Shown here: positions 33,858 to 63,056 of the stretch, one piece after another | Layout of the letters: the number at the start of each line of letters is the position of its first letter | Numbering within the stretch: the stretch's first letter is position 1 | Source: an uncultured Elusimicrobia bacterium | GTDB lineage: Bacteria; Elusimicrobiota; Elusimicrobia; 2-01-FULL-59-12 | Length of the DNA: 64,000 nucleotides | Assembly (NCBI GenBank): GCA_963702895.1 | Contig: OY969767.1 | Location: forward strand, 1,536,001 to 1,600,000 | Reading direction: 5' to 3' | Translations under genes and position numbers: made by a program | Notes under the pieces: model-generated | Told to the model about the DNA's origin: nothing | Seen by the model: only the letters and a program-made list of their open reading frames with translations | Database searches by the model: none

Positions 33858-34164
33858 CCTCGAATCTTCTGTTGACGTCACCCCGGCGGATTGTTAGCCG
33901 GCCCTCCACACATCCGGCGGGCCGTCCGCCCTGCCGTGTGGCGGACGGGGTCTATTATCGACGTAAAAATATGATGGATCCGACACACTACGGTCGGACG
34001 CCTGTCGTCTGGCGTCCCCCCCCTTACCATCAGCCGATGCGTTACTGGCTGATGGCCATCGTCCTATAAAAATGGGATACGATAGCGGCCGGGGGGGATG
34101 ACGGCACTAAAAGGTGCGCCGGGTTGAGACGGAGAGAATTGGGCAAGTACAGGTTTCGGGCTAA
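33855..34164 (+). mobile_element. MITE-like element carrying three nested hairpin inserts
   Basis: Left end taacctcgaatcttctgttgac, REP core, right end tttcgggctaa; extra segments relative to the 12503, 48807 and 52505 copies. Confidence 0.65.
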
Positions 34165-34202
34165 CGACATGCCGGGATGACGGCCCAAATGAATCTTTGC
34201 GA

Positions 34203-35627
34203 CTAGATCGCTCGGAAAGCCCAGGAGAGAAACACCTTGATGCCGGAATTGGCCTGGTTGACCTCCGGCAGGTGGTCATAGAGCGTACGGCGCTCCTGGA
34301 AGGACCACCCCAGACCCGCGTACAAATCTTTCATCAAGGGATAGCGCGCTTCCGCGTCCACCAAGATGAGGCGGTTCTCGCTTGAGATCCCGTCGTTCGT
34401 GTTGAACCACCCAGCCGACATGGAGAGCTTAAACCAATCAACCTCGTGACGACGGATACGGACATCGATTTTAGGGCCACCACCACTACCAAAGTCATAG
34501 TTTCGACCTGTGGCGTTGATGCTATCTTCTTCATAGTCGACCTGGATTCCCGCGAAGATAAAACCCTGGGCGGAGAGTTCGGTCCGCAGATCAAATTCCT
34601 CGGGAAGCTTCCAGCGTGACAGGAGCGTCAGATTCAGGCCTTGCCCCCCCAACGCCGAGGCCGTGTTGTTGAAATAGTTATAGCTCAAGGTGGGCGCCAG
34701 CATATGGTGTACGTCACCATCATCCTTGAGTTCCCACCCAGCGAGCAACCCTCGGTAGGTCACATAGGGTAAGAGGGGTCCTTTGGCCAGAGACATCGTC
34801 CCTTCCAGGTCAAAGTAATCAAAGGGTTTTTTGATCTCCGTTTCGTGAGGGTCGTTTTGGCGCAAGATGAGCGAGAAATACCCTTGATCCGGATGGGCTG
34901 ACATTTCACGGCCATGCTGGTAGCCACCGTCCACCATCACAAAGAGCATGTTCGGAAACCGGTCGGGAGGATTGTCTTTCTTTTTCCACATATCACCAAA
35001 CACGAGCCGGTCCACGAACCCCACCGGGTTCACGATCCCCGCGCCGAACTCACGCCAAAATCGTTCAGCGCCGGTCGCTCGGTTATCGCGGATGACATTG
35101 GACAAACGATAAGTCATTTCGCCACGGCTCATACCCCCAAACAAGGTATTGACCATATCGTTATAAGAGGGGAGCTCCGATTCCATGAAGAACTCCCAGC
35201 CGAAATCGCCCACAAGGGTAAAGAGCGACGACTCCCAGAAGTTAAACCCATTTTCGCGGCCAGCGTTGAAATACAGGGATCCCTGAAAGGGGTGGCCCCA
35301 TTGGTTGGTTTGGAAACTGTCCTGATCGAAGACAAAGCCCTCCTCAAAGTTGCGCCGGACTGAGTCCATGGAAATGTCCGCGTAGTCCGCGTCGAGGACG
35401 TAGTGGCTATAGAGCCAGGGCGAATACCCGACCACAATCATTTCGGCAGTTGCGCGCCAAAACCGTTTTTGAACACGAGGGGCCGCCGCGGCTGCTTCGC
35501 TTGGCAATGTCGTCGTTGATAAGCTCGGGGAGTCCGGCGCGGCAGCGGGCGTGGGACTCTGCGCGTAAGCGTGTGCGATGAAGAACAGGAAAACGCTAGC
35601 CGCAAGCGGAACCGGATACCTTTTCAT
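34203..35627 (-). CDS. DUF3943-like outer-membrane protein, copy 1
   Basis: FVFDQDSFQTNQWGHPFQGSLYFNAGR.NG..FWES...WE.FME.E.PSYND; C-terminal barrel strands. Confidence 0.8.
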   Translation of the reverse strand: MKRYPVPLAASVFLFFIAHAYAQSPTPAAAPDSPSLSTTTLPSEAAAAAPRVQKRFWRATAEMIVVGYSPWLYSHYVLDADYADISMDSVRRNFEEGFVFDQDSFQTNQWGHPFQGSLYFNAGRENGFNFWESSLFTLVGDFGWEFFMESELPSYNDMVNTLFGGMSRGEMTYRLSNVIRDNRATGAERFWREFGAGIVNPVGFVDRLVFGDMWKKKDNPPDRFPNMLFVMVDGGYQHGREMSAHPDQGYFSLILRQNDPHETEIKKPFDYFDLEGTMSLAKGPLLPYVTYRGLLAGWELKDDGDVHHMLAPTLSYNYFNNTASALGGQGLNLTLLSRWKLPEEFDLRTELSAQGFIFAGIQVDYEEDSINATGRNYDFGSGGGPKIDVRIRRHEVDWFKLSMSAGWFNTNDGISSENRLILVDAEARYPLMKDLYAGLGWSFQERRTLYDHLPEVNQANSGIKVFLSWAFRAI

Positions 35628-35704
35628 AAAATAGCCTCTCTAGAAGTTAACCCAAAATCTTCCATTCACCAAGTCCTGCCGTCTGAGCCTGCAGCACTTT
35701 TTTA

Positions 35705-35870
35705 TCCCCTCTCCCGCCGCCAGGTGGGAGACCCGCGCTTCCGCAATTTCCTATAGCGCGCAGGTCCCACGGTCGTAAGTGGGAGGGTAAAGGGTGAGGG
35801 CACAGCCTCATCTTACGACGGAGCCTTGCCCTCACCCCCGCCCTCTCCCGCGTTCCGCGGGCGAGGGGGT
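35705..35870. repeat. CCCTCTCCC palindromic repeat, copy 2, with a twin-hairpin insert at 35732-35784
   Basis: cccctctcccgc..gtgggaga[...]gggtaaggggtgagggcacagcc...gccctcacccccgccctctcccgcgttccgcgggcgagggg. Confidence 0.6.
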
Positions 35871-35995
35871 TCCATAGAACCGAAGATTTTGAGTTAACGA
35901 TGCTCAACAACTTTTCAACATCGTATATTTTTGACACCCTACAGTTCCAGGCGAAAGACTCCCTATGAAAGTCCTCAGCTTGAGAGGACCTATCC

Positions 35996-37423
35996 TTATC
36001 CGATGATTCGGAAAGCCCAGGATAAGAAGGCTTTGATTCCGGAACTGGTTCGTGAGGTCGCGGGGAGGTCCTGATAATGCGTGTGGCGGTCCTGAAACGA
36101 CCACCCCAAGCCGACGAACAAGTCTTGGGTGATCGGGTAGCGGGCTTCCGTGTTGACAACAATGATCCGATTGTCCGATGAAATCCCATCATTGGTCTTG
36201 AACCATCCGGCCGAAAGTGAGCACCGGAACCAGTCAACGTCATGGCGGCGGATCCGGGCATCGAGGACCGGACCTCCACCAGAACCGAAATCATAATTGC
36301 GCCCCGTGGCAGCGATACTTTCCGCTTCGTAGTCGGTTTGGATCCCGGCAAAGATATAACCTAAAGCTCCCGCCTCTGTGCGAAGCTCAAAGTCCTTGGG
36401 AAGCATCCATCGGGAAAGGAGCGCCAGATCCAACCCCTGCCCCCCGAAGGCGGAATGACCGTTATCGAAGTAGTCAAAGGTCATCCCGGGCGAAAGCATA
36501 TGGTGGGCATCTGCATCCTCGAAGACATCCCAGCCGGCGACCAAGCCCCTGAAGGACGCGGCAGGAAGGGCTGGACCTTTCGCCGTACTGAGGGTGGCGT
36601 CGACGTGAAAATAATCAAATGGTTTTTGGATCGGCGTTTCATGGGGATCGTTTTGACGCATGGAGAACGAAAAATATCCCTGGTCTGGATGCGGCGTATT
36701 GCTTCTTCCATGTTGGTAACCACCGTCGACCGTCAGAAAAAGCTTGTTGGGAAACCGGTCCGGCGGGTTGTCTGCCTTTTTCCACATGTCCCCAAAGACC
36801 GCTCGGTCCGCAAATCCAACGGGGTTTAGGGCGCCGGCCACCACCTCACGCCAAAATCTGTCAAAACCCGTGGCGCGGTTGTCTCGGACCATTGTCGAAA
36901 GACGGTAGTTGATTTCCCCGTGACTGATACCGCCGAAAAAGGTGTTGGCCAGATCGTTGTAGGACGGTTGCTCGGCTTCCATGAAGAGTTCCCAGCCCAA
37001 ATCACCCACCAAGACGAAGGGAACGGATTCCCAGAACGTAAAGCCGTTTTCTCGGGCTGCGTTGAAATACATAGCCCCCTGATACGAATGGCCCCAGATA
37101 CTGGTTTGGAATTTGTCTTGGTCAAACACAAATCCCTCTTCAAAGTTATGGCGGACCGTATCCATGGAAATATCGGCGTAGTCCGCATCCAAGACGTAAT
37201 GGCTGTAGAGCCAAGGGGAATACCCGACCAGGATCATTTCACCGGTCGCCCGCCAGAACCGCTTTTGAACGACCGGGTCCACCGTGCCCCTTGCGCTTGG
37301 CGAAGTTGTCGTCGAAATAGTTGAAACGCTCGTCACATCAGGCAGTGAAGCGCTCTGCGCGTAAGCACTTGAACTGAGCAAGAGGCAGGCGCTGATCACT
37401 AAAAAAAGAGGGCGGATTTTCAT
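35996..37423 (-). CDS. DUF3943-like outer-membrane protein, copy 2
   Basis: Full-length paralog of 34203..35627. Confidence 0.8.
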   Translation of the reverse strand: MKIRPLFLVISACLLLSSSAYAQSASLPDVTSVSTISTTTSPSARGTVDPVVQKRFWRATGEMILVGYSPWLYSHYVLDADYADISMDTVRHNFEEGFVFDQDKFQTSIWGHSYQGAMYFNAARENGFTFWESVPFVLVGDLGWELFMEAEQPSYNDLANTFFGGISHGEINYRLSTMVRDNRATGFDRFWREVVAGALNPVGFADRAVFGDMWKKADNPPDRFPNKLFLTVDGGYQHGRSNTPHPDQGYFSFSMRQNDPHETPIQKPFDYFHVDATLSTAKGPALPAASFRGLVAGWDVFEDADAHHMLSPGMTFDYFDNGHSAFGGQGLDLALLSRWMLPKDFELRTEAGALGYIFAGIQTDYEAESIAATGRNYDFGSGGGPVLDARIRRHDVDWFRCSLSAGWFKTNDGISSDNRIIVVNTEARYPITQDLFVGLGWSFQDRHTHYQDLPATSRTSSGIKAFLSWAFRIIG

Positions 37424-37512
37424 GGGATTGATATCGCCGTGGAATATACTTCAGTGGCAATCGTGCACATAATATATTTTTCCACGTGTTCTGTGTTAGG
37501 ATTAATCGCTCT

Positions 37513-38403
37513 ATGAGATCCCTTGGGCTTCGTCGGATCCATCGGTGTGGCATAGCTTTTGCAATCGCCAGCGTTCTCCCCTGGCTGCCACGCCAGGCCC
37601 TTGGCTCTTCCCCCAGCAGCCTGGAAGAACGTATCGCGAAAGAAGAGCGCTTGAAGCAGGTGGGGTATTTTATCCTTCCTCACCGGCCCAATTATTTGAT
37701 GCCGCTCAGCTACAACCCCCACCCTAACAATGAACCTTTTGCGCCAGAGACGCAGCCGCTTGATGAAATTGAGACGAAGTTTCAAATCAGCGTCAAAGTC
37801 CCCTTAGCCGAGCGCCTCTTCACGGTGCCTATCCAGACCTATATCGCCTATACACAGGTGTCCTTCTGGCAAACCTACAACGACCAAAAATCTTCTTTAT
37901 TCCGGAACACGGACTACGAGCCGGAGTTCTTTTTTCAATCGAACGCGACATGGAAGATCTCGGGCCTCACCAACCGCTATAGCCGGCTTGGCTTTACCCA
38001 TCAATCCAATGGACAAGCCACCCCCATCTCCCGGAGTTGGAACCGGATTTATGCCGAATTTGTCCTGGATTACGGCCCCAGCATGATTTCCATCAAGCCT
38101 TGGTTCCGCATCATCGGACCCGCCGAAGAAGACACGAATCCTGACATGTGGAAGTATTATGGTTACGGCGAATTGCGGGGCGCGGTCAAAGTTTGGGGCA
38201 AGCAGGAGTTCTCTTTGCTTTTCCGCAACAACTTGGACTTCCATGACAATAAGGGGGCCGTCGAACTCGGATGGTCCTTCCCCTTGATTCGCAGCATGAA
38301 CGGTTTTGTTCAGTACTTCAACGGCTACGGCGAGTCCCTTCTGGATTACAACGTTCCGGTGAGCCGCGTGAGCGTGGGCGTGTCGTTTTCGGGTTGGCTC
38401 TAG
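37513..38403 (+). CDS. pldA: Outer-membrane phospholipase A (OMPLA)
   Basis: KFQISVK, YTQVSFWQ, FRNTDYEPE, catalytic HQSNG...SRSWNRIY, QYFNGYGESLLDYN. Confidence 0.93.
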   Translation: MRSLGLRRIHRCGIAFAIASVLPWLPRQALGSSPSSLEERIAKEERLKQVGYFILPHRPNYLMPLSYNPHPNNEPFAPETQPLDEIETKFQISVKVPLAERLFTVPIQTYIAYTQVSFWQTYNDQKSSLFRNTDYEPEFFFQSNATWKISGLTNRYSRLGFTHQSNGQATPISRSWNRIYAEFVLDYGPSMISIKPWFRIIGPAEEDTNPDMWKYYGYGELRGAVKVWGKQEFSLLFRNNLDFHDNKGAVELGWSFPLIRSMNGFVQYFNGYGESLLDYNVPVSRVSVGVSFSGWL

Positions 38404-38606
38404 CCGGGAATCCTCTGTTGGGTCGGTATTGTCGTCTGAGGTTAGTGGACTTTTTTGTGCCGTCATCCCGGCATGCCGTCAGCCGGGATCCATCATTTAC
38501 GTCGAAACGTGATAGACCCCGTCCGCCACACGGCAGGGCGGACGGTCCGCCGGAAGTCTGGAGGACCGGCTTTCGCCGGGGTGACATCAACAGATGATTC
38601 CGGGCT
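38401..38606 (-). mobile_element. MITE-like element (inverted copy) with a 47-bp twin-hairpin insert
   Basis: Terminal inverted repeats tagccgggaatcctctgttg / caacagatgattccgggct; REP core; insert at 38522-38568. Confidence 0.7.
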
Positions 38607-38661
38607 CGGATATCTGGTGCTAGGCACTATTGGCTAAAAAAGCAGGATGAGTGACAAGACG

Positions 38662-39846
38662 TTAGGATGGGAACAGCACATCCAGGCCTTCCTGCCAGGG
38701 TAGGATGTGAATGCCATGCGCCAAGCGCGGCCGGGGGGCGTTGGAGAAACAGTAGAGTTTTGCTTTGGGGTTTTCTTTCTGGAAGGCCAGAAGCCCTTTG
38801 AGTTCCTGTTCGGCCGGCGCCTCGCCGGATTTGATCTCGATGGCAACTGGCGCCTCCGCCGTATTGCGATAAAGGATCACATCCACCTCTAGGCCGGTGT
38901 TGGTCCGCCAATAAGCGAACCGGTATCCGGCGTCCGTATAGTCATTCAGGCGGATCATTTCGAGGAGGACCCAGGACTCGAACAGCTTGCCATAGCGGAA
39001 GGATCTCGAGCGCAGCTCGGTGCGCAATTCTCCCCGAAGGGCGTTCAGTACCCCGCAATCGAAGAAATAGAACTTGGGCGCCTGCATCAACTGCCGGCGC
39101 ACGGAGGTGGACCATCCGTCCAGCCGGAAGGCGATCAGCGTATCCTCGAGAATGGAAAAATAATCCTGAATGGTCGGGACCGAGGCAATACCCTGGCGGG
39201 CCATCTTGGAAAAATTCACCGGTTCCCCGTGCGCCTGTGCCGCGAATTCCAGAAATCGCGTAAAACGATCCAGCTTGCGAACCAGCGCTTCCTGCTGGAT
39301 TTCCTCTTTCAGATAGGTTCCCACGTAGGCGTCCAGCCAGGCTTCGGGTTTCGCTTCCGAAAGGTAGAGTCCTGGCAACGTCCCGAACTGCAGAGCCTTA
39401 GCCAGATCCAAACGCACTTCTCGGTGCGTCAAAGGATGCAGATGAGTGACATAAGCCCGACCCGCCAGGAGATTGGCGCCGCCTCGCTTGAGCTTGCGGG
39501 CGCTGGAGCCGGTCAGGAGAAACTGAACGTCTTTGGAACTCTCATTAAACAGGGAATGAACGACATCCAGCAGAGCGGGCACTTTCTGAACTTCATCGAT
39601 GAGCACAAAAAGAGGCTTTCCCGGCCTGCGCTCCCAGGCGGCATGAACTTCTTCTTTCAACGCCCCAGGGTGTTTGAGGTAACGTAAAAACGCCTTCTGA
39701 TCAAGGAGATCAATGGACAGAGCCGGCGGTCGCGTCTGAACCAACGCTTGAGCCAGATGTGTTTTTCCTGTTCCGCGCGCGCCAAAGAGGAAGGAAGAAC
39801 CCTCCTTCCCCAGAAGTTTTCCCAAGTCCAAGAGCCTCTTAACCAT
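38662..39846 (-). CDS. AAA_14 ATPase with DUF4143 domain, paralog 3
   Basis: GARGTGKT, LIDEVQK, TGSSARKLKRGGANLLAGRA, KFYFFDCGV, EVDVI...IEIKS. Confidence 0.9.
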   Translation of the reverse strand: MVKRLLDLGKLLGKEGSSFLFGARGTGKTHLAQALVQTRPPALSIDLLDQKAFLRYLKHPGALKEEVHAAWERRPGKPLFVLIDEVQKVPALLDVVHSLFNESSKDVQFLLTGSSARKLKRGGANLLAGRAYVTHLHPLTHREVRLDLAKALQFGTLPGLYLSEAKPEAWLDAYVGTYLKEEIQQEALVRKLDRFTRFLEFAAQAHGEPVNFSKMARQGIASVPTIQDYFSILEDTLIAFRLDGWSTSVRRQLMQAPKFYFFDCGVLNALRGELRTELRSRSFRYGKLFESWVLLEMIRLNDYTDAGYRFAYWRTNTGLEVDVILYRNTAEAPVAIEIKSGEAPAEQELKGLLAFQKENPKAKLYCFSNAPRPRLAHGIHILPWQEGLDVLFPS

Positions 39847-39907
39847 GGTTTAAATATATCATATATATGTAAAGTCCTCTATAGGCTCCATCGCAGTGGC
39901 CGGGATT

Positions 39908-40996
39908 CTAACGGCCCCAGGAGTGCGTATAGACCGTCGCGACCGTTTGGAAATCCGCGCCGGTGCGCGTGACAATCCCATTACTGTAGTTGATCCCCAC
40001 AGAATCCCACCGCGACAGCGCCATCGTGAGAGTCCCCCCCAGACGGTGATTGGTTTGAAGGTCCGCTCTTTCGGCGCCATTGACACTTGTCTGACCGCCG
40101 GAAGCGATCCCATAGTTAAAAGCCAGCCATATCTTCTTGTCTAACGAATAGATGACGTCGCCCTTGAGATAGGCGATCGGCTTTTGAGTGAGCTCTTTGC
40201 CTCCGAAATAGTTATGGTTCGTCGTGAAGAACCAGGCTCCTCCCGCGACTTCGGCGCACCAAGGCCCCCAGGCCCGCGACACGCCGGTTTCCGGACGAAA
40301 CGACCAGCGGTTCGCCCCCAGGTTGATCATGCGCGTGGAATCATACTGTCCCAAGGGCGCCGCCATCATGAAACTCAGGCCCCAAATGGTGCGTTGTTGG
40401 TAACTCTGAAACTCTGACCGGCGGAGTGCCGGCGCGCCCGCCAAATTTACGGTTAAGCGAAAACGAGGATCAATGAGCCCCTGCGGATCGCGGGTCATGA
40501 ATTGGCCGTCCACCAAGCCCTCGTAATGGCCCCACGCCACCGCCGTGACGGCATCCGCGCGCGCCATTCGGCCGAAGAGGTTGAAATATCGTGCATACAA
40601 CATCAACGCCCCATGGAGATGTGCTTTCGCATCTTCAAGGGGGACCTGACTGTCTTCCGCAAGAATATTCCCACCGGTGTAGGCATAGCCGAGGGATAAG
40701 GCATTCAGGCCTACAGGCGCGTTCCTGTACAGACCCGGCTCGAGCTCCAGGGCATGGGCCACTGCCGCCGAATAGAGCACGAGTAGACCCAGGAGAAGTT
40801 CGCCCAGTCGCTTATGCTTGCAGTGCAAGACTTTTGTGTTCGGCAAGATGCCTACTGTTCTTCGGGTTGGATAGGTTGTAGCCTCACTTGGCGGCCCTTC
40901 CACGTCCGGTTCGCCAGCAGGCAATTCTTCATAGCACAACGCTGATACGCACTCGATATTCTCAATCTGACAGGCTCTTTCTATGATCGGCCTCAT
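39908..40996 (-). CDS. Outer-membrane transporter (Phenol_MetA_deg-like barrel); true start probably downstream, near 40830
   Basis: ELEPGLYRNAPVG, DPRFRL.VNL.GAPAL, APLGQYD...INLGANRWSFRPE.G. Confidence 0.8.
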   Translation of the reverse strand: MRPIIERACQIENIECVSALCYEELPAGEPDVEGPPSEATTYPTRRTVGILPNTKVLHCKHKRLGELLLGLLVLYSAAVAHALELEPGLYRNAPVGLNALSLGYAYTGGNILAEDSQVPLEDAKAHLHGALMLYARYFNLFGRMARADAVTAVAWGHYEGLVDGQFMTRDPQGLIDPRFRLTVNLAGAPALRRSEFQSYQQRTIWGLSFMMAAPLGQYDSTRMINLGANRWSFRPETGVSRAWGPWCAEVAGGAWFFTTNHNYFGGKELTQKPIAYLKGDVIYSLDKKIWLAFNYGIASGGQTSVNGAERADLQTNHRLGGTLTMALSRWDSVGINYSNGIVTRTGADFQTVATVYTHSWGR

Positions 40997-48806: not shown

Positions 48807-48973
48807 TAACCCGGAATCTTCGTTTGACGTCACCCCGGCGGATTGTTAGCCGGGGTCTATCATCGACGTATAAAACATGATGGATCCCCCCCTAGGACCG
48901 GGGGGGATGACGGCACGAAAAAGTCCCGAATTCTCTGTCGACAAGTCATGTTCAACTGTATTCTTTTTGCTAA
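48807..48973 (+). mobile_element. MITE-like element (insert-free copy)
   Basis: taacccggaatcttcgtttgacgtcaccccggc...gatgacggcac...ttcaactgt...gctaa; aligns end to end with 52505-52660. Confidence 0.7.
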
Positions 48974-52660: not shown

Positions 52661-52663
52661 CCT

Positions 52664-54229: not shown

Positions 54230-54853
54230 TTAGTGTCGAAATATGGATCTGTCTACGCGTCCCGCAAATTCACGGATGAGGGCGTCCTTGTTAGCACCTT
54301 CTTGAACTTGGGTGCGCGAATCCGCTGACCAGAGCAGCTTCTCGGTCTTGGCGTCATAGAGCCGGGTTTCGACCACGGCTGTATTTTCCGTAATCGTATA
54401 ACCCGACTCATCGATCATCCGATACGTCGAATCGTAATAGCCGTAATACCCCGCGTGGCCAGAGGCGTGGAAAGAGGGACCGATTTGCGCCTGGGACGCG
54501 ACCTCTTTTTCCACCGTCTCCACATAGACTAAACGCGAGACGACCACGGTGTCAAAGGATTGTTCCGAGACGACTCGCTTAAGCCCTTCCTTATCCCAGC
54601 GGGCACCTTGCGGAGAAAGGGAAGAGGCAGCGGTCGCTTGGAGATTGCGTTTGGAAAAGTTTTTCACGAGAGACTCTTCGAGAAGCTGTTGCTTGTCCAG
54701 ACCTACTCCGAGGACAAGAATCTTCTTTATTTGACCGGGCGAAAAGGTTGGATCCTTCCATGATTTCACGACCTGGGTCGTCGCACACGAAGACAATAGC
54801 CCGATCAGCATGAGGAGTCCGGGTGCCATCGTAGCGCAATAGAGCTTCCTCAT
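54230..54853 (-). CDS. DUF4136-like lipoprotein
   Basis: Lipobox LSSC; SWKDP, KILVLG, ETRLYD..TEKLLWS. Confidence 0.72.
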   Translation of the reverse strand: MRKLYCATMAPGLLMLIGLLSSCATTQVVKSWKDPTFSPGQIKKILVLGVGLDKQQLLEESLVKNFSKRNLQATAASSLSPQGARWDKEGLKRVVSEQSFDTVVVSRLVYVETVEKEVASQAQIGPSFHASGHAGYYGYYDSTYRMIDESGYTITENTAVVETRLYDAKTEKLLWSADSRTQVQEGANKDALIREFAGRVDRSIFRH

Positions 54854-54940
54854 CGCACAGACTCCGTCATGAGCTGACCCATTCCGTGTACTGTCGAATG
54901 ATTAACATCAAAACGGATTATAGATTATATTGTTATTGTG

Positions 54941-54970
54941 TTGACGCGCGATTGCACCTGATGATACTAT
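54941..54970 (+). promoter_or_regulatory. Sigma70-like promoter of the patatin gene
   Basis: TTGACG-N18-TACTAT with TGn extension, 8 nt before ATG, no SD. Confidence 0.55.
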
Positions 54971-54978
54971 CATCATAG

Positions 54979-57192
54979 ATGTCACCCACTCGTCTCTCAT
55001 TAGCGCTCCTGCTGTTGATCGCCCCATGCACGAGCGCCTTCTCTGCCAACCCTCAACGACGAAAGATAGGACTCGTTCTCTCCGGAGGCGGCGCGCGCGG
55101 GGCTGCCCATGTCGGGGTGCTAAAAGTTTTGGAAGAACTGCGAATTCCGGTTGACTTCATCGCGGGAACCAGCATGGGCTCGGCCGTTGGTGGCCTCTAC
55201 GCGACAGGGCTTTCCGCCGAGGAAATGAACAAGATTTTTGAAAAGTTCGACTGGGACGCCGCGTTTAACGATTCTCCGCCGCGCCGAGAACGCTCCTTCC
55301 GCCGCAAGCAAGATGATCAGAATGGCCTGGTGAAAGCCCGCGTGGGCATTGGCGCAAACGGCCTTGAGTTCCCCCGCGGCATCGTGGAAGGGCAAAATTT
55401 CGTCACCGAGTTGCGAAAGCTGGGGCATATCACGCAGGACCTGCCTTCCTTTGATGAGCTGCCCACGCCCTTCCGGGCGCTGGCCACCGATGTCGTGACC
55501 GCGGAAAGCGTCGTCATCAGCTCCGGGGACCTCGCCATGGCCATTCGCGCGAGCGTCGCCATCGCGCCGCTTTTTTCTCCCGTCGAATACCAGGGTCGTC
55601 TCCTGTCGGATGGCGGCTATTTGAACAACATCCCCGTCAACGTCGCCCGGGACATGGGAGCCAACGAGGTGATTGTCGTCAATATCGGGACGCCGCTCGC
55701 CAAACGCGAAACGATCCGGTCCGTGATGGATGTGATGTCCCAAACAGCGCGAGTGGGAGGCACCCAATTTGATCAGCAGCAGATCAAGTCGATCACGTCC
55801 AAGGACCTCTTGATTGAGCCGGATCTGACGGGGCTTTCATTCGTCGATTTTGGGAAAGTCCCCGAGATGATCCAGCGCGGCGAAGCAACGGCGAGAGCGA
55901 TGATCGATCAGCTTCGCCGCTATTCCGTCTCCGAGGCAGAATACGCAGCGTGGAAATCGCGCCGCAAAGGCATACAGCCCTGGCCGGTGATCCAGGAAAT
56001 CGAGATACACAATCACAGCAACATTCACACCGATATTATCCGCCCTTTCATCAGTCAGCCGGTTGGAGCGCCGCTGGATCCCGTCGTGATGCAGCAGGAC
56101 CTCGGGCGCGTCTACGGACTCGGCTATTTCGAATTTGTCGACTATACGGTGGTCCCGAGCACCGCGGGAGCCAAGCTCATCATCAACGCCCCTCGCAAAT
56201 CTTGGGGACCGAATTATCTGCGCTTCGGGGTCAAATTTATCGATGATTTTAACGGCAGTTCGCAGTACCAACTGGCCTCGCGCTTTACGATGACCGAGCT
56301 CAACAAAATGGGCGGGGAGTTTCAGAGCGACCTGGGCATCGGGACCAATTCACGCCTGGGCCTAGAGTACTATCAGCCGTTTCTCTACAGCAAGCAGCGT
56401 TTCGACAAAGGCGCCGCTTATTTTGTCACGCCCGTCTTCGGTGCCGAGCGAGCGACAGAAGAGGTGATCGTCGACGGCGAACGCGCCCTTGAATACCGCG
56501 TTAACCGCTATCTCTCTGGGATCGACCTCGGGCGTCAATTCAGCAATTACGCCGAGCTGCGCGGCGGCTTCCGCAAGTCCATAACGGACTCTGATCTGCG
56601 GGTCGGCACACCACCGGCCGGCCTGGAAGACCCCCAGTTCGATGATGCCTACGTTAGGGCCATCCTCCGCTACGACACGCTTGACAAGGTGGCCTTCCCC
56701 ACCCGAGGCGGCATAGGATACCTGGAGTGGCGCAATACCGTCCAAGCCATGGGCTCCGATTTCGATTACCAGAGCCTCGACCTTTCCGCCCAGCACTTTT
56801 GGCCGTGGAAAAAGAACACCTTCGCCGCCCGCGGCGTTTACTCCACCAACCTGGATCGGAGTACCAGCCGTCCACGTCCCTACGATCTCGGGGGATTTCT
56901 CTTCATGTCCGGGTTTAAGGAAAATGAAATGGTGGGAACCGACCGCATACTCGGACAGCTCCAGTACTATTACGAAATGGGAAAACTCGCAAAGTCTCCT
57001 TGGTATCTAGGTGTTATCGCTGAAGCGGGAGGGACCTGGTTCGGAGAAAGCGATATCACGCTTTCTTCCACCAAGACCTCCGGCACTCTCTTTCTGGGTG
57101 TGGACAGCTTCTTCGGCCCACTCTACCTAGGCTACACGTACGCCAGCGGCGGCAACAGCAGCGCGGCCTTCCTCCTCGGCGTACGCTACTAA
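54979..57192 (+). CDS. Patatin-like phospholipase-POTRA-Omp85 barrel (type Vd autotransporter, PlpD-like)
   Basis: LSGGGARGAAH, GTSMG, DGG; POTRA-like segment; C-terminal barrel ending GPLYLGY...LGVRY. Confidence 0.92.
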   Translation: MSPTRLSLALLLLIAPCTSAFSANPQRRKIGLVLSGGGARGAAHVGVLKVLEELRIPVDFIAGTSMGSAVGGLYATGLSAEEMNKIFEKFDWDAAFNDSPPRRERSFRRKQDDQNGLVKARVGIGANGLEFPRGIVEGQNFVTELRKLGHITQDLPSFDELPTPFRALATDVVTAESVVISSGDLAMAIRASVAIAPLFSPVEYQGRLLSDGGYLNNIPVNVARDMGANEVIVVNIGTPLAKRETIRSVMDVMSQTARVGGTQFDQQQIKSITSKDLLIEPDLTGLSFVDFGKVPEMIQRGEATARAMIDQLRRYSVSEAEYAAWKSRRKGIQPWPVIQEIEIHNHSNIHTDIIRPFISQPVGAPLDPVVMQQDLGRVYGLGYFEFVDYTVVPSTAGAKLIINAPRKSWGPNYLRFGVKFIDDFNGSSQYQLASRFTMTELNKMGGEFQSDLGIGTNSRLGLEYYQPFLYSKQRFDKGAAYFVTPVFGAERATEEVIVDGERALEYRVNRYLSGIDLGRQFSNYAELRGGFRKSITDSDLRVGTPPAGLEDPQFDDAYVRAILRYDTLDKVAFPTRGGIGYLEWRNTVQAMGSDFDYQSLDLSAQHFWPWKKNTFAARGVYSTNLDRSTSRPRPYDLGGFLFMSGFKENEMVGTDRILGQLQYYYEMGKLAKSPWYLGVIAEAGGTWFGESDITLSSTKTSGTLFLGVDSFFGPLYLGYTYASGGNSSAAFLLGVRY

Positions 57193-57222
57193 TAGGGTCA
57201 GCTAATCGGAGACAATCGAAAG

Positions 57223-57813
57223 ATGTCCTATATGAAACGAATTGCTCCCTTTCTAACGGTCGCCTTTTTCTTAAGCGGCTGCGCCTCCACGCAAATGCAG
57301 AAGGTGGAGCGGGCTCCCGGTTTTCAGAGCGCACAGATCCGAAAGGTCCTCGTCATTTCGGCTGCGAAAATGCCGGAGCGGCGACGCGCGATTGAGGAGG
57401 AATTTTCCAGCCAATGGAAGAAGCGAAAGGTGAATGCAGTCGCCAGCTACACCTTGATTCAGGACCTCTCCTCGCAAAACAAAGAGAGCGTCGCGACACT
57501 CGCACGAGAACAGCGCTTCGATAGCGTTCTGCTCGGGCAGTTGAAGAAGCGCGGCGAGATCACGCCTCAATATCCCAACCAGGCCCAGAAAGATAGCGCG
57601 GGGATGACGGAGGACATTCAGGTCACCATCGCCTCCCCGCAGGATCCGATCGATTTCGAAGCGGCGATCATCACGACCAAGCTCTACGATGTCGCAACAG
57701 AACAACTGCAATGGACCGGAGTGAGCCAAACCATCATCATCAGCGGAAATGTCCAAGATGTGTTCAAGCCGCTCGTGAAGACCATCCTCAAAAGCCTCTA
57801 CGAAAAGCCCTAG
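57223..57813 (+). CDS. DUF4136-like lipoprotein
   Basis: Lipobox LSGC; KVLVI...RRAIEE; TTKLYD..TEQLQW. Confidence 0.7.
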   Translation: MSYMKRIAPFLTVAFFLSGCASTQMQKVERAPGFQSAQIRKVLVISAAKMPERRRAIEEEFSSQWKKRKVNAVASYTLIQDLSSQNKESVATLAREQRFDSVLLGQLKKRGEITPQYPNQAQKDSAGMTEDIQVTIASPQDPIDFEAAIITTKLYDVATEQLQWTGVSQTIIISGNVQDVFKPLVKTILKSLYEKP

Positions 57814-57821
57814 TCAGTTGA

Positions 57822-58020
57822 AGTATCGGAGTATCGGAGTATCGGAGTGCCGGAGTAACGGCGTAACGGAGTATCGGCGGAACGGGGTATCGGAGTAATG
57901 GCGTAACGGAGTAATGGGGTATCGGAGTGCCGTGCGTGGGGAGGAACGGAGTACCGGTTCGTCGGTTTAGCTCAAAACAGCTTTTGTGCTGTTACTCCGA
58001 TACTCCGATACCCCGTTACT
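57822..58020. repeat. Octamer tandem repeat (GGAGTATC/GGAGTAAC/GGCGTAAC) with inverted arm
   Basis: More than 10 degenerate 8-mers at 57822-57957; reverse-complement units gttactccgatactccgataccccgttact at 57990-58020. Confidence 0.85.
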
Positions 58021-58029
58021 TCTATCGCG

Positions 58030-58686
58030 TTAACGGGCGGGCAAGAGCCCCGCGGAGGCGGCTTCTTCGACACAACGTTTGGCGATGAGTTTTTGGACTT
58101 TGCTGGTAGGCAAATCGTGAGGAATTTTCACGGGGACAGTGTTGTGCCACTGCAGATGGCCCGTCGACGTTCGGTAAACGCTCATGCCCACCTTCATCAT
58201 CTGGTAGCCCGTCTGACCGCTTGACCCAGGGATCGGCTGTCTCCCCGGGGCTCTGGGCATTGTTTCCACATACGTCTCTCCCTTCACGGGCTCGATGAGG
58301 ATCGGCTCTGCTCCCGGTGCCTGCGGAACGGCTTGGGATTTCAAAAAGTCTTCGAAAGAAGCAGGCGTCTTGCGGCTCGGCATTCGGATGTTTCGTTGCG
58401 TGCGCAGCACAAGGATAGAATCAAAAAGCTCTTTCTTTAATTGATTTTGTATCTCCGAGGGCTTCCAGGTCTTCTCAGACGGAAAGAGGGTCTCATAGGA
58501 AGCCGACTCCACTTGCCGGCCGGCCAGAAGCGCGCGCACTTCAAGCTCCGTATCACGGACGACTTTCGGGTCATTCCCTACGACCATGACCGCGACTTTC
58601 TGCAGCGGCCCGGAGTCATTCGAAACGGCTGCCCCCATGGGGCGGGCCAGAGCGCTGACCAGGATCAAAAGGAAGACCTTTTTCAT
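58030..58686 (-). CDS. Exported protein, distant DUF4136-like paralog
   Basis: Signal peptide; KVAVMVV, SYE..P, FDSILV, VYRTSTGHLQW. Confidence 0.6.
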   Translation of the reverse strand: MKKVFLLILVSALARPMGAAVSNDSGPLQKVAVMVVGNDPKVVRDTELEVRALLAGRQVESASYETLFPSEKTWKPSEIQNQLKKELFDSILVLRTQRNIRMPSRKTPASFEDFLKSQAVPQAPGAEPILIEPVKGETYVETMPRAPGRQPIPGSSGQTGYQMMKVGMSVYRTSTGHLQWHNTVPVKIPHDLPTSKVQKLIAKRCVEEAASAGLLPAR

Positions 58687-59027
58687 GGTTGGGGAGCAGA
58701 GCTCTTTTCGGGTTCCATGACCGCGCAGCCAACATTGCCTTCCTGGCACCAGATCACAAGCGTCTTGTTTTCACCACACCCAGACACAAGAATGGAGTAT
58801 TTCGCCTGACGACCACTGCCCGTCCAGGCAGCCTGACCGACGGGAGGTGTGGTGACTTCGCTGGTGATGACTTGGGTTTTGGGCGCTGGGCAGCGCCAGG
58901 TCAGCCTTGCCCTGTCCGTGGCTGCCTCCAAAGCGCTCGCTTCGTTGTCAATCAAAAGACGCGACTTGGTGGCGCAACCCGCCAGCAGCATCATTCCCAG
59001 AATCCCTATGTTGATGCGCTTGTCCAT
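58683..59027 (-). CDS. Small Cys-containing lipoprotein
   Basis: Lipobox LAGC; four further Cys. Confidence 0.68.
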   Translation of the reverse strand: MDKRINIGILGMMLLAGCATKSRLLIDNEASALEAATDRARLTWRCPAPKTQVITSEVTTPPVGQAAWTGSGRQAKYSILVSGCGENKTLVIWCQEGNVGCAVMEPEKSSAPQP

Positions 59028-59039
59028 GTCTTGCCTTCC

Positions 59040-59435
59040 TTAATAGTCCGGCTGTATCGGAAGCGCTAAGAGTTTGTCGTAGTGTTTCCGGCATTCCGGA
59101 ATCAGTTGGTTCTTCCACGCCTTGAGGCACTTAATCCGGGCAAGCGCGTCCTGGGGTTCCATGGCGCAATAGTGCTGTATGTCCGGAGCGCAGGCGTTAC
59201 GCGCCCTCTGGACATGCTTATCGATCTTGGCGATGCTTTTTTGACAAGCGGGTGAGAGATCCTCGAGATGCTCGACCATACAGGTAAAGATTCTCCCCTT
59301 TCCGCGATCGATCGTTCCGCAAAGGTTGGCTTCATCCAAAATACAAGGGTCGGTCTGGGCGCGCGCCGGCGAACTCGCCAAGGCACCGAAGATCCCCAAG
59401 GACATCAGAAAGATTCGTACGCATTCCTTCTTCAT
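59040..59435 (-). CDS. Exported cysteine-rich repeat protein
   Basis: C..D...LC.....G.GRI..C......LS..C repeat twice; AAGGAGG RBS. Confidence 0.78.
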   Translation of the reverse strand: MKKECVRIFLMSLGIFGALASSPARAQTDPCILDEANLCGTIDRGKGRIFTCMVEHLEDLSPACQKSIAKIDKHVQRARNACAPDIQHYCAMEPQDALARIKCLKAWKNQLIPECRKHYDKLLALPIQPDY

Positions 59436-59534
59436 GATTAGGCCTCCTTCGTTCACGCCGGTATATTCTAGCCGAACAAGACACCGAACACCAGCGCTGT
59501 TTCCGAGCGCGGAGATTGCGGTAAAATGGCTCTC

Positions 59535-61544
59535 ATGAAGATACGCAGGTCCGTACAGCGCATCGTCGCCTTAACCGTTCTCTTCGGCCTCCCCTTGCTT
59601 GTGCTGATCGCCGGCATGATGTTGCCACACTTCCTGAAGTTGGAAACATACCGGCCCCTGATTGAGGAACAGCTCCGGGAAGCGAGCGGCCGTCATGTGA
59701 CGGTCGGCGCGCTTCGCGCGAGGCTCGTGCCGCCTGGCGTGACGGCAGAGAAGGTCGGGGTCTTCGAGCGCGAACCGCCTCAACGACCGATTGTGACCGC
59801 CGAGCGAGTCCGTTTACGCTTGCGTCTGCTGCCGCTTCTGAGCGGGAAGATTAGCCTTCATACAGCAGCCTTTGAGCGTCCTGTGCTCATTCTGTATACC
59901 GATCGCACACCCAGCGCTCCGGCTTTGAAGGCACAGGGTGCTGGACCGAGCCACCGTCCCTCCCTGCGGGCATTGATTCATCAGGGCACCATCGAGCTTC
60001 GTGGTTCACTTTTCGGTCAGACCGTGCGCTGGCCCGTTGACAATGTCGAAGGTGAAATGGAAACAACGAAACGGCGCATCACGCTTACGGCAAGGCCATC
60101 GTTTCTCGGACGATCGGCGCGCCTGGTCGTCACCTTGGATCCCGAGGCCGAGGAGTCCTTTTATGCCGAGCTCAAAAATGCCAATCTCGATTCTCTCTTT
60201 GCGGTCCTCGGATCAACGCAGGCGGCTCCCTGGACCGGATCGACCCTCGACGCGCATGCCACGGCCCAGTGGCCGGATAAGAAGGGCATGGTGTTGTATC
60301 TGGATCGCCTTAGACTTTCCCCTCTCCCAGAGGCTTCGGCGCGAGGCAGTGTTCAGATTTCCACGACTTCCGTCAGCGGCAAGGTTCAGTTTGATGGGCT
60401 CGCCTCCACCATGACCCTACAAGGCAGATGGCGCTCACGCCGGTCGGGATGGGAAGCCACGGCCAACGTGAGCGAGTATTCTCCAGAAGTGCTGCGTCTT
60501 TTGATGGACAACTATTGGGTCAAGGCTTTGGAAGGACCGGGATCGCTCATGCTCACGGTTGCTAAAAAAGGGTCGAAGGCGCCGCAATACTCCCTCAAGG
60601 GATCCAGTTTTACATTCACCGGAAGCCGGCTGCTGGTCCCTTCCTGGTGGGCTTCCGATGATGGAGCGGGACTTCAGGTGGGAGTCGAGGCCAAGACGCC
60701 GGAAGGGGACGGGAAGGTCGAGGTCCGGTGGGCGCAAGCCTCTTCGTCCCCTTACGGGAACATTAGCATCGCGATGTCGACCGTCACGGTCGGGGACGTG
60801 TTCGATGTATTTTCCGTTCGCCCCTCGACGCCCCTAGGACTCGAACCCTGGCTGGTTCGGGAAGGACACTACACGGGACTTGTGCATGACGACGGACGGG
60901 TCGAGATTGAGAACACGCTCTTTGAGCTCCAGGAACTGCGTGTTGCAACCGCTGGCGAGATCGATCTGAGCACCTCGCCCGCCCTCGCACGATTCGAAGG
61001 GCAGCTCTCCAGAGTCAATTTATCTCCTGTTCTGGAAAGCCTCGGGGTGCGTCCTTCTCCCTTGTCGGGCCTTGCGAGTGCGGACTATTCGATCCAGTTT
61101 TCAGCCGATTCCCGGTGGCTCCAGAGCTTGAGTGGCCGAATCAGCACCCAAAGCCAGGATGGATTTTTGCGCGCTGGAAAATTGATCTACAAGATCGCGG
61201 GGGTGCTCAACCTCACCAACCTCGTCAAGTCATCGAACCAATCCAAGACCACCAAGGACGGGATTCCCTACCGCAGCGCCGCAGCGAGCGCAACGCTAAC
61301 CGATGGACTTCTGGACTGTGAGGACCTTAAGATCCGCACGCCCAATTACAACATCGGCGGCAAAGGGAAGGTAAATCTCCCCGAAAGCACCATCGACGCC
61401 AAGATCAAGCTGCAATTCCTGAATGTCCTCAAAGACAGCCTCAACGCGATCCCACTTGTCAAACGCGTCATAACGCCGGACACGGGGCTCCTCGAAGTGC
61501 CGGTGCGCCTGCGCGGCAAACTGGACAATCCCGAGATCGACTAA
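59535..61544 (+). CDS. AsmA-family protein
   Basis: N-terminal TM, YRPLIEEQL..ASGR.V, LRLLPLLSGKI; C-terminal G.G.VNL, VPVRLRGKLDNP. Confidence 0.82.
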   Translation: MKIRRSVQRIVALTVLFGLPLLVLIAGMMLPHFLKLETYRPLIEEQLREASGRHVTVGALRARLVPPGVTAEKVGVFEREPPQRPIVTAERVRLRLRLLPLLSGKISLHTAAFERPVLILYTDRTPSAPALKAQGAGPSHRPSLRALIHQGTIELRGSLFGQTVRWPVDNVEGEMETTKRRITLTARPSFLGRSARLVVTLDPEAEESFYAELKNANLDSLFAVLGSTQAAPWTGSTLDAHATAQWPDKKGMVLYLDRLRLSPLPEASARGSVQISTTSVSGKVQFDGLASTMTLQGRWRSRRSGWEATANVSEYSPEVLRLLMDNYWVKALEGPGSLMLTVAKKGSKAPQYSLKGSSFTFTGSRLLVPSWWASDDGAGLQVGVEAKTPEGDGKVEVRWAQASSSPYGNISIAMSTVTVGDVFDVFSVRPSTPLGLEPWLVREGHYTGLVHDDGRVEIENTLFELQELRVATAGEIDLSTSPALARFEGQLSRVNLSPVLESLGVRPSPLSGLASADYSIQFSADSRWLQSLSGRISTQSQDGFLRAGKLIYKIAGVLNLTNLVKSSNQSKTTKDGIPYRSAAASATLTDGLLDCEDLKIRTPNYNIGGKGKVNLPESTIDAKIKLQFLNVLKDSLNAIPLVKRVITPDTGLLEVPVRLRGKLDNPEID

Positions 61545-61730
61545 CTTGCTTGGATCGGCGATGGGGCGTATCGGCGTCCCGGCGCATCACGGAACGGCCT
61601 TGTCACGTGAGCAAGGAATAGCGGCTCGCTGGCGTTGGCAGGCTACGCGAGTCGAAGACTGTAGTTTTTTGTGTGAAGTTTGCATTGCGTGTCGGCCCTT
61701 AGGCTGGTACTATTTAGGCACAGGACCATC

Positions 61731-62021
61731 ATGGACATCAACGAATTCTTGAAAGACAAAAGAGAAGGCATTCTCCGGATTGCCACAAAGCACGGAGCGC
61801 ACCATGTCCGCGTGATTGGTTCTGTTGCGCGAGGAGAAGCGCGTCCCGAGAGCGATATCGACCTTTTGGTGGAGCTGGATCCTGATCGGAGCTTGATGGA
61901 CCATGCGGCCCTCATGATTGAGCTTGAATCTTTTTTGGGACGGAAAGTCGATGTGGCCACCGAGCGCGGTATGCGTCCTCATATTCGTCAACATGTCATA
62001 CAGGACGCCATCCCCCTATGA
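61731..62021 (+). CDS. Minimal nucleotidyltransferase (MntA-type antitoxin)
   Basis: GSVARGEARPESDIDLLV (GS-x10-DxD), LGRKVDV. Confidence 0.92.
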   Translation: MDINEFLKDKREGILRIATKHGAHHVRVIGSVARGEARPESDIDLLVELDPDRSLMDHAALMIELESFLGRKVDVATERGMRPHIRQHVIQDAIPL

Positions 62022-62359
62022 GGCCTGATCGCGATCGGCTAGGAGATGTTTTGGAAGCCATTGAACGTATCGAGAAATACGTCGTTCACGGCAAGGCTCG
62101 GTTTCAAACAGACGAGCTCATTCAAAATTGGATCATTCATCACCTGCAAATCATCGGGGAAGCGTGCCGGGCTTTATCTCCCGATTTCCAGAAAGGCCAT
62201 CCTGAAGTGCCTTGGGCACAAATCGTCGGCATGCGCCACATTCTTGTCCATGACTATTTTGGGATTGATCTGGTTGAAGTGTGGAAAGCGGTCGAGCGCG
62301 ACTTGCCTATCCTCAAAACAAAAATCCAAGGCCTCGTCCATTCCTTACCGAAAAAATAA
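62018..62359 (+). CDS. HepT-like HEPN RNase toxin (DUF86)
   Basis: IIGEA, PEVPW, RHILVHDY (R-x4-H); 4-bp overlap with the MNT gene. Confidence 0.92.
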   Translation: MRPDRDRLGDVLEAIERIEKYVVHGKARFQTDELIQNWIIHHLQIIGEACRALSPDFQKGHPEVPWAQIVGMRHILVHDYFGIDLVEVWKAVERDLPILKTKIQGLVHSLPKK

Positions 62360-62361
62360 TC

Positions 62362-62576
62362 TCTTCGCTGTTTCGCCTGTTCACCCACTCTCTGATTCCC
62401 CGATTCGCCGACATGCCGGCTCGCCGATTCCCCGTTTCGCCGGTTCGGCAAAGGAAGATTGGCAAGAGAGATGACCGCAAAAATGCAGAGAGCAGAGATG
62501 AAACAAGAGAGCTGTTTATCAAGCGGCCGACGCTTGGAGGCCGAGCGCATTTCTGCTCTCTGCTTTCTGCTCTGCC
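62362..62576. repeat. Octamer (CGCCGATT-like) tract followed by an inverted heptamer (GCAGAGA/TCTCTGC) tract
   Basis: ccccgattcgccgacatgccggctcgccgattccccgtttcgccggttc; gcagagagcagagatg...ctgctctctgctttctgctctgc. Confidence 0.6.
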
Positions 62577-62582
62577 GTAAAA

Positions 62583-62718
62583 TGGTGGCAGGGGAGAGGA
62601 TCGTCCGCCACACAACAGGCGGACGCCCGACCGTCGTGTGTCGGGCGAACTCTCGACACCGAGCGCCACCACAACGCGGCGCTCGCCCGCCGGGCCCCAG
62701 TGGCGGGCGGTTTTTCAG
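62583..62718 (-). pseudogene. 3' half of tRNA-Phe (anticodon loop to CCA) interrupted by two twin-hairpin inserts
   Basis: Matches 63036-63080 after removing 62604-62647 and 62661-62708. Confidence 0.85.
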
Positions 62719-62806
62719 TCCCGTCCACTCTATAAGCGGCCTGAGGCCGCGTTCGATCGACGGGACAGCCCCGTCAATCACTGCATTTGCCGGGCGCGCT
62801 TAGATT

Positions 62807-63056
62807 TGGCAGGGGAGAGGATCGTCCGCCACACAACAGGCGGACGCCCGACCGTCGTGTGTCGGGCGAACTCTCGACTCATGATCTTCTGAACAGGACC
62901 ACGATCCTGCGCAAAGAAATGGTGGCAGGGGAGAGGATCGTCCGCCACACAACAGGCGGACGCCCGACCGTCGTGTGTCGGGCGAACTCTCGACTCATGA
63001 TCTTCTGAACAGGACCACGATCCTGCGCAAAGAAATGGTGGCAGGGGAGAGGATCG
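62807..63056 (-). repeat. Perfect 116-bp tandem repeat containing the tRNA-Phe T-arm/acceptor 3' strand with a 44-bp T-loop insert
   Basis: tggcaggggagaggatcg recurs at 62807, 62923 and 63039; the two units are identical. Confidence 0.95.

Follow-up and report, generated by a model that had tools for sequence, protein, structure and literature searches.

Paired head-to-head hairpin inserts with a triplicated target in an Elusimicrobiota genome, and a candidate GIY-YIG nuclease

A 64,000-nt window of an Elusimicrobiota genome (a single contig of 2.72 Mb with 57% GC) contains short DNA inserts, here called twins, in which two small hairpins stand head to head. We are nearly certain that this twin-hairpin family is real and has been inserted many times. 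In most inserts, one to four target bases are found on each flank and once more, reversed, between the two hairpins. The reading that we favour, with a probability of roughly 0.42, is that a staggered break in structured DNA receives one 20–23-nt hairpin at each 3′ end, probably by way of a tRNA-nested GIY-YIG nuclease and host repair. An earlier reading of the window from its letters alone (the sequence-only reading) had proposed a non-autonomous, ultra-short family; many independent insertions and empty paralogous alleles bear this out.

The unit of the family is a 20–23-nt hairpin with a 6-bp stem, NN-CGMC-loop-GKCG-N′N′, in which two stem bases are variable and four are fixed. Two classes are distinguished by the loop. 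In class A the loop has 8–9 nt and reads A-[CG]-A-[CA]-N-N-C-N; positions 1 and 3 are fixed in 52 of 52 halves and position 7 in 51 of 52. In class B it has 10–12 nt and mostly begins with ACT[AG] (ACTR-N5-8). The stems and three loop bases are invariant. Two units placed head to head make up inserts of 36–50 bp, and this arrangement is found in 75 of 83 adjacent unit pairs; seven same-strand pairs are nested insertions and one consists of two abutting twins. The second GC hairpin of the sequence-only reading is more precisely a homologue of the first in reverse complement, and the linker that separates the two spells the duplicated bases in reverse complement. Both twin ends read NN-CGMC-A[CG]AC inward and form terminal inverted repeats.

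The filled allele can be written as L-X-H1-X′-H2(inverted)-X-R and the empty allele as L-X-R, where X′ is the reverse complement of X and k is the length of X. The net insert is |H1|+|H2|+2k. The value of k ranges from −2 to 4, and k=−2 denotes two bases common to both stems (the 36-bp class). A strict motif-anchored scan for tandem hairpins, with flanks and empty sites, as the sequence-only reading had proposed, returned 60 rows representing 58 loci in the genome, compared with 0, 0 and 1 in three Markov-4 shuffles. In five rows from the strict pattern across genomes (three distinct loci, including the sole matches of G006 and G008, two of the related genomes), the stems pair differently and the rule does not hold. 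A second finder, which demands intact 6-bp stems and thereby omits loci with other stem pairing, located 113 distinct twin loci in the host genome and 50 in loci of relatives. Clustering by flank and stem gives about 55 separate events in the host genome and about 108 with the relatives' loci. The caveat that there may be only two insertion events thus holds for the window, not for the genome.

The footprint was examined in 94 contexts, of which 46 had a unique empty match with at most two mismatches of 26; the other 48 were not counted. The duplication length equals the linker length in 44 of these 46 informative loci, distributed over k=−2 (14), k=0 (10), k=1 (1), k=2 (9) and k=3 (10); k=4 and k=−1 turned up with the intact-stem finder. 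Of 102 loci with k≥1, 95 show the X..X′..X pattern exactly, as do 44 of the 47 whose X is non-palindromic; counted by event, the values are 54 of 60 and 23 of 25. Duplication is present in 60 of 108 events, and 35 of 108 are without it. Pairing holds at 233 of 242 positions inside X and falls to 36 of 190 one base beyond and 28 of 190 two bases beyond; because it drops so sharply outside X, stems creeping outward are excluded as the origin of the pattern. A prospective set of 12 inverted twins picked by their linker, which leaves out eight head-to-tail array loci and four loci without a closing arm, gave eight exact cases, three partial ones and one failure. The exact cases include TAA/TTA/TAA and TAAA/TTTA/TAAA. 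The CG duplication of the sequence-only reading (the k=2 class) is indeed the commonest, but the duplication around its 47-bp inserts is 3 bp, CCG/CGG, in 10 of 10 informative k=3 loci. CG is one case of a wider rule, with C/G, CA, GG, CCG, CCGG, TAA, TAAA or none as the others. A plain CG duplication had been seen because CG and CCGG are self-complementary, so that the inversion is invisible.

The loci in the window are as follows; REP stands for repetitive extragenic palindromic, and SRM is the hairpin repeat of the Ssn system compared below.

62602..62647, no strand assigned: class A twin, k=2, in the T-loop of a spare tRNA-Phe copy, with an exact empty allele at the tRNA-Phe gene; X=CG 62602-62603, hairpin 1 62604-62623, linker CG 62624-62625, inverted hairpin 2 62626-62645, X=CG 62646-62647; net insert 44 bp
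62823..62868, no strand assigned: second identical 44-bp twin; hairpins 62825-62844 and 62847-62866
62939..62984, no strand assigned: third identical 44-bp twin; hairpins 62941-62960 and 62963-62982
62807..63038, minus strand: two identical 116-bp tandem units (62807-62922 = 62923-63038, units compared)
63036..63110, minus strand: intact tRNA-Phe(GAA) gene, whose T-loop (63051-63056 region) is the empty allele
62660..62709, no strand assigned: class B twin with 10-nt loops, k=2, CG/CG/CG; hairpins 62662-62683 and 62686-62707; 48 bp
33899..33948, no strand assigned: class A twin, k=3, in the 3′ arm of a CGTC-REP/SRM stem; X=CGG 33899-33901, hairpin 33902-33921, linker CCG 33922-33924, hairpin with a 9-nt loop 33925-33945, X=CGG 33946-33948; net 47 bp
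38519..38568, no strand assigned: class A twin, k=3, in the orientation opposite to 33899..33948; X=CCG 38519-38521, hairpin 38522-38542, linker CGG 38543-38545, hairpin 38546-38565 with a compensatory T-A at the stem base, X=CCG 38566-38568; 47-bp insert
33979..34016, no strand assigned: class A twin, k=−2, net 36 bp, in the partner repeat arm; hairpins 33979-33998 and 33997-34016, with two bases in common
48828..48860, plus strand: hairpin repeat of the CGTC-REP/SRM type (long-loop variant) with no insert; empty allele of 33899-33948
35732..35784, no strand assigned: 53-bp two-hairpin insert in another palindromic repeat; resembles the twins but belongs to a different family, with a TTAC loop

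The coordinates of the inserts in the sequence-only reading all check out. The 44-bp insert lies in three tRNA-Phe T-loop copies as it had described, and is identical in all three; the T-loop of the intact gene is empty. The two 47-bp inserts are present too, with the compensatory change from C-G to T-A, and so is the repeat without an insert at 48828-48860. Each 116-bp unit comprises the tRNA-Phe 3′ end with its twin and the downstream sequence. Since two of the three tRNA-Phe inserts sit in one 116-bp tandem duplication, the three represent one event. The class B twin at 62660..62709 lies near the anticodon stem of the far tRNA-Phe copy; there the parent gene is different by one base, so that the empty-allele test gives a duplication length of one (d=1). 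The k=−2 class is confirmed by 14 empty alleles, while the copy at 33979..34016 is itself ambiguous because of a C run. Regarding the inserts that had been called analogous, those at 33979-34016 and 62662-62707 belong to the same family, and the one at 35732-35784 belongs to the TTAC-loop family. The supposed miniature inverted-repeat transposable element (MITE) that hosts the 47-bp inserts is in fact a CGTC-tagged REP/SRM repeat. Rfam over the window matched tRNA alone.

The suggested preference for structured DNA is borne out as a bias. Twins are absent from all 48 tRNA calls and are found instead in partial tRNA copies, mostly 20–600 bp from the parent. Insertion into a working tRNA gene would presumably kill the cell, and this would account for the restriction of twins to spare copies. 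In T-loops of the TTCGA type, eight tRNA loci show CG/CG/CG, two of five Gln copies having one altered copy; in those of the TTCAA type, three tRNA-Pro loci show CA/TG/CA in five of five inserts. Further targets are D-loops, anticodon arms, CGTC-REP/SRM stems, heptamer repeats and other palindromic repeats, and the loops or linkers of earlier twins also serve as targets. Among CGTC-REP/SRM arm matches, 45 are filled, 140 empty and 119 unclassified. Protein-coding genes are affected as well. In the related genome G001, a 42-bp twin lies in frame in rarA and adds 14 residues to the RarA/MgsA protein, which is 79% identical to its orthologue in the host genome with the 14-aa insert as the single gap; this is an empty orthologous allele across genomes, of the kind that the sequence-only reading had asked for. 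The pseudouridine synthase of a relative has a 14-aa in-frame twin insert of the same kind. As a separate observation, four twins of a length divisible by three lie inside larger repeats of the host genome (C1:897021, 975662, 1133645 and 252480; L202, L203, L199 and L198). Their long frames match EPSP synthase, a menaquinone enzyme, a UvrD-type helicase and an ABC ATPase, and from these frames the twins may lie within translated genes.

The strict class A pattern occurs in seven of 61 genomes, including five of ten of the same family and one of another family, and its backward-read form has no match in any of the 61. Class B is present in 11 of 20 chosen genomes from five families. Neither class was detected in G004, G009 or G010. 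In the species collection, 32 of 33 strict-pattern matches are titled Elusimicrobiota, and no cyanobacterial genome was matched; the single other match (L018) has imperfect outer stems and was taken as chance. The viral contigs yielded neither a twin nor a relative of the nuclease clade described below. A sequence-agnostic T-loop pattern applied to 401 genomes returned mostly noise and was used for its canonical inserts alone; one genome, G139, had 125 of these loose matches, compared with 0–30 in the others, and none of them lies in its first 20 kb.

The candidate enzyme comes from the neighbourhood of the twins. The host genome has nine GIY-YIG matches, one long protein and eight small ones, and four of the eight small genes have a hairpin unit within 300 bp, against an expected 5%. 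Two small genes are flanked by SRMs. Two genes lie behind tRNA-Asn, each ending inside a twin-bearing 3′ copy of a tRNA. Their clade, which has the signature K[ST]GNGRR and comprises the 71–86-aa nucleases that co-locate with twins, is located between twin-bearing tRNA copies in G000, G001, G005, G007 and G050, which are the five genomes with canonical class A twins, and has no close match in G002–G004, G006 or G008–G011. Its support is 93/95, under the starred threshold. The intact candidate gene of the host genome is at C1:1813478-1813693, minus strand. Of 19 metagenomic loci, L136 and L137 repeat loci of the query set and were left out of the count. In all seven new full-length close matches a tRNA lies next to the gene and one of its copies carries a twin; eight more distant matches and one of two partial close matches have no canonical twin. 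More distant relatives across the phylum often adjoin tRNA copies with single, related hairpins. In G006, one GIY-YIG gene (L068) is situated between three 5′ copies of tRNA-Leu whose D-loop holds a different, perfect 20-nt palindrome without duplication.

The clade protein retains the GIY-YIG catalytic Y/R/H/E residues. Its predicted fold (mean confidence, pLDDT, 91.7) is nearest to UPF0213 and Slx1, with no Foldseek match at E≤0.001, and NCBIfam gave sub-threshold matches to group I intron endonucleases only. The clade of SsnA, the nuclease compared below, is cd10448; the present protein may carry the SLX1-like label cd10449. Compared with the SRM-flanked paralogue it shows a weak match with 28 aligned residues, and it falls on a separate branch of the tree. 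Participation of the GIY-YIG nuclease in twin insertion stands just short of an even chance. The stronger proposal, that such a tRNA-nested nuclease of 70–90 aa drives a new insertion reaction in which 20-nt hairpins act as adaptors on staggered-break ends and leave the direct-inverted-direct target copy, is on the unlikely side. As an observation on the same gene family, a GIY-YIG gene with an in-frame TGA (C1:580617-580811; L050) lies between tRNA-Ile and tRNA-Ala in the rRNA spacer and is followed by a modified tRNA-Ala copy.

Insertion by hairpin delivery to two ends can be drawn in four steps. First, a pair of donor hairpins on opposite strands would be kept in one complex; as a result class, stem pair and stagger k would be inherited. 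Second, both target strands would be nicked k bases apart, with the site chosen partly by pairing with the donor linker. Third, the hairpin 5′ end would be joined to the target 3′ end, and the hairpin 3′ end would be filled in across the overhang, copying X into X′. Finally, the two ends would anneal via X′/X, followed by fill-in. A hydrolytic GIY-YIG nuclease cannot itself carry out the joining, so a host ligase and polymerase are assumed. Twin priming, P nucleotides and the guide pairing of IS608 offer analogies.

Delivery to two ends is favoured because of the symmetry of the footprint, its sharp edge, the tracking of the target, the existence of free halves and the convergent arrays. CA linkers are present on five stem pairs, and among k=2 events the stem pair does not predict the linker (p=0.67, 40 events). 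The halves also behave as separate parts: the k=3 and k=4 REP families have one half in common and the other different, a CG/CG/CG T-loop insert (L135) pairs a class A half with an unrelated hairpin, and single hairpins replace tRNA arms. No two events have both halves in common (distinct halves, 52/56 in class A and 38/40), and stem pairs recur as at random. In G211, head-to-tail arrays of up to four units are followed by degenerate inverted copies. Class B head-to-tail arrays with fixed short spacers were noted at L216, L228, L229, L231, L237–L239 (G211) and L217 (G116), some of them with alternating loops before the degenerate inverted copies.

Several observations weigh against this reading. 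Class mixing is nearly absent (AA 133, BB 28, AB 2 of 163), and the association of stem pair with k was matched in 0 of 5000 permutations, whether k=1 is included or left out; both would fit transfer of a whole element too. Seven of nine k=1 events have the same stem pair and the same linker base at unrelated sites, a G006 lineage retains a TT(T)A-type X at four sites, and k=2 inserts outside T-loops mostly still have CG. In the case of tRNA-Thr(GGT), whose working gene has CA, the T-loop insert carries CG instead. Near-identical pairs exceed expectation (3 observed, 0.36 expected), and the non-recurrence of pairs is weak evidence because loops are rewritten after insertion. The k=−2 and k=−1 classes demand shorter stems or 5′ overhangs, an extra assumption. 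With respect to the enzyme, the K[ST]GNGRR clade may be a neighbour rather than the cause, since other GIY-YIG clades also adjoin twins (L057, L070 and L127), and the link is one of co-location among kin in mostly incomplete genomes. No activity, intermediate or within-species polymorphism was observed; two DNA sequencing runs matched 6–7% of the words, with reads that do not span the inserts, and no RNA run matched.

Among the alternatives, the one that survives best is that the whole twin leaves one strand as a 36–50-nt circle folded into a dumbbell (b′-X-a paired with a′-X′-b). The dumbbell would integrate at a matching X through one strand exchange, which replication would resolve, like CTX attP(+) or an integron attC; the inner X′ would be the opposite strand of its stem, and minor mismatches would be evened out later. 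Judging from the CTX mechanism (PMC4246890), one-strand integration of a folded donor would yield exactly X..X′..X. A folded circle also accounts for the lineage-fixed k, for the lineage-fixed X better than delivery to two ends does, for class matching in 161 of 163 and for the slight excess of near-identical pairs. What makes it unlikely is the variability of the footprint: k runs from −2 to 4 and 35 of 108 events are without duplication, unlike the fixed overlap of a recombinase, and CA/TG/CA appears on five stem pairs with no CA/CG/CG intermediate at CA-type tRNAs. The heterologous half in L135 and the single-hairpin replacements call for another route, the inverted homology of the two loops is left unexplained, and no recombinase gene was found beside the elements among the families searched (Y1, reverse transcriptase, GIY-YIG and DUF559).

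A second alternative dispenses with dedicated chemistry. Starting from nicks at hairpin-prone sites, synthesis would switch template twice, guided to an existing twin by micro-homology of 1–4 bases, quasi-palindrome correction would perfect stems and linker, and the GIY-YIG cassettes would supply spare tRNA copies and nicks only. Rewriting of loops in short tracts is indeed ongoing: among the 45 copies that reside in REPs, the stem is constant, as are loop positions 1, 3, 4 and 7, and positions 2, 5 and 6 vary, with C/G transversions at one position. The perfect compensatory stems and the slippage derivatives (L141) fit as well. However, the inserts end exactly at the base of 6-bp stems, pairing halts sharply at k where generic correction should creep beyond, k=0 events lack micro-homology, and three loop bases and the stems are invariant, as in a protein-bound signal. 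We regard template switching as improbable.

The sequence-only reading had suggested an HUH enzyme (RAYT- or TnpA-like) acting in trans; with it we consider a reverse transcriptase, including twin-primed reverse transcription by that of a group II intron. HUH chemistry joins a hairpin 5′ end to a 3′-OH, which is the polarity needed, Y1 genes occur in all five relatives searched, and the host genome has three intact 507-aa reverse transcriptase genes. Against these points, the only Y1 match in the host genome is weak and 89 codons long, 14 of 15 Y1 loci from six genomes lack any hairpin unit to a distance of about 1.5 kb (one has units at 259 and 1418 bp), Y1 genes also occur in G004, a genome without twins, and the reverse transcriptases are ordinary group II intron frames with no units at their ends. 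A partner of either kind is a poor prospect. The three reverse transcriptase genes (C1:230277, 463860 and 1962540; L042–L044) each lie beside hairpin repeats. Lastly, two further routes were rejected for the twins, serial addition on a single strand and a simple exchange of two ends capped by hairpins, because both predict same-strand loops, contrary to the head-to-head pairs.

Some neighbouring features were also recorded. The 53-bp TTAC-loop insert at 35732..35784 has one exact second copy and empty alleles at C1:1437904 and 1963736; it is hosted by a ccctcacc-type palindromic repeat (window 35700-35880), with 12 related hairpins genome-wide, and at L127 a TTAC-loop two-hairpin module is nested between two class B halves. 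A DUF559 gene (C1:1904956-1905273; L054) is flanked by ccctcacc-type repeats, one tip of which is replaced by a single class A hairpin, and forms a second pair of small nuclease and repeat. At 62482-62575 in the window, a convergent heptamer-repeat hairpin of gcagaga-type units adjoins the last tRNA-Phe copy and is head to head like the twins. Two small gene pairs flank the tRNA-Phe array on both sides (61733-62359, plus strand; 63145-63757, minus strand), and from their translations both look like a nucleotidyltransferase with HEPN/DUF86 (MNT-HEPN toxin-antitoxin type). Directly behind a tRNA-Ala, L047 (1245-1365) contains a GATA/GATG tetranucleotide microsatellite of about 120 bp, unusual in a bacterium.

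To place the twins among known systems, we compared them with other short palindromic elements. By the tests run, they are a variant of the tiny non-autonomous palindromic elements and are neither REPIN, MITE nor SRM. The non-autonomous elements of IS200/IS605 have both end hairpins on one strand and no target duplication; in contrast, the twin hairpins are on opposite strands and 60 of 108 events have a duplication. Elements of the MITE type moved by a DDE transposase resemble the twins in their terminal inverted repeats and differ from them in the variable k of −2 to 4 and the linker that is the reverse complement of X. In 2008, Elhai et al. reportedly described SDR1–8 of the Nostocales as structured repeats of 21–27 nt inside heptamer repeats, MITEs and themselves, and the same kinds of target occur here. 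We know of no paired head-to-head form or target triplication among the SDRs. They have been reported only in Nostocaceae, according to the part of PMC5861425 cited.

The closest relative in composition is the Ssn/SRM system (Chenal et al. 2025, PMC11893778), in which a small single-domain GIY-YIG gene is likewise flanked by dispersed hairpin repeats and the signal consists of sequence and structure. SsnA, a related small GIY-YIG protein, binds its own hairpin repeat in single-stranded DNA and cuts just 5′ of the repeat (PMC11893778). The SRM consensus has 147 matches in the genome, compared with 18–39 in shuffles, and fits the host repeat of the 47- and 36-bp inserts, not the twins. The twin is another, shorter hairpin which inserts into SRMs, and its nuclease belongs to another clade, flanked by tRNA copies; the cited main text of PMC11893778 is without the word 'tRNA' and reports cutting, not insertion. 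REPINs with RAYT (Bertels and Rainey 2011, PMC3116915) share with twins an inverted palindrome doublet as the replicative, non-autonomous unit, and CGTC REPs (Di Nocera et al. 2013, PMC3733652) and REPINs share intergenic and in-frame copies. Unlike these, twins have a spacer of only 0–4 bases, a total of 36–50 bp, a linker tied to the target, no GTAG/CGTC tag (their ends are variable dinucleotides beside CGMC) and no RAYT beside them. Mitochondrial GC clusters and double-hairpin elements (PMC4478555) are similar GC-rich palindromic inserts of about 40 nt with a short putative target duplication, merger and shuffling of units, and intron endonucleases proposed as movers; they are organellar, have a fixed AG duplication and, in the portion of that article cited, show no inverted internal target copy. 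For CTX attP(+)/XerCD and integron attC (PMC4246890), integration of folded single-stranded DNA would leave direct-inverted-direct crossover copies, but twins have no recombinase binding arms beyond the hairpins, a variable overlap and no cargo. Neither paired hairpin inserts with a triplicated target nor tRNA-nested GIY-YIG cassettes were described in the literature searched, which largely excluded subscription journals.

How very short palindromic repeats spread without a known transposase (CGTC REPs, SDRs and mitochondrial GC clusters) is an open question in the parts of the literature cited. Twins probably belong with the smallest mobile DNA elements that bacteria carry. They disable spare tRNA copies and remodel genes, for instance by the 14-aa in-frame loops that they add to RarA and to a pseudouridine synthase in a relative. 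The exact quantitative footprint, the sharp recognition logo and a specific candidate enzyme of 72–86 aa make the competing mechanisms separable by oligonucleotide assays. If the model of delivery to two ends holds, the twins would represent a natural hairpin-adaptor insertion reaction. If, in addition, the reading in which the GIY-YIG nuclease drives insertion is true, it would be a new transposition chemistry and would explain the origin of many tiny bacterial palindromes without a known transposase.

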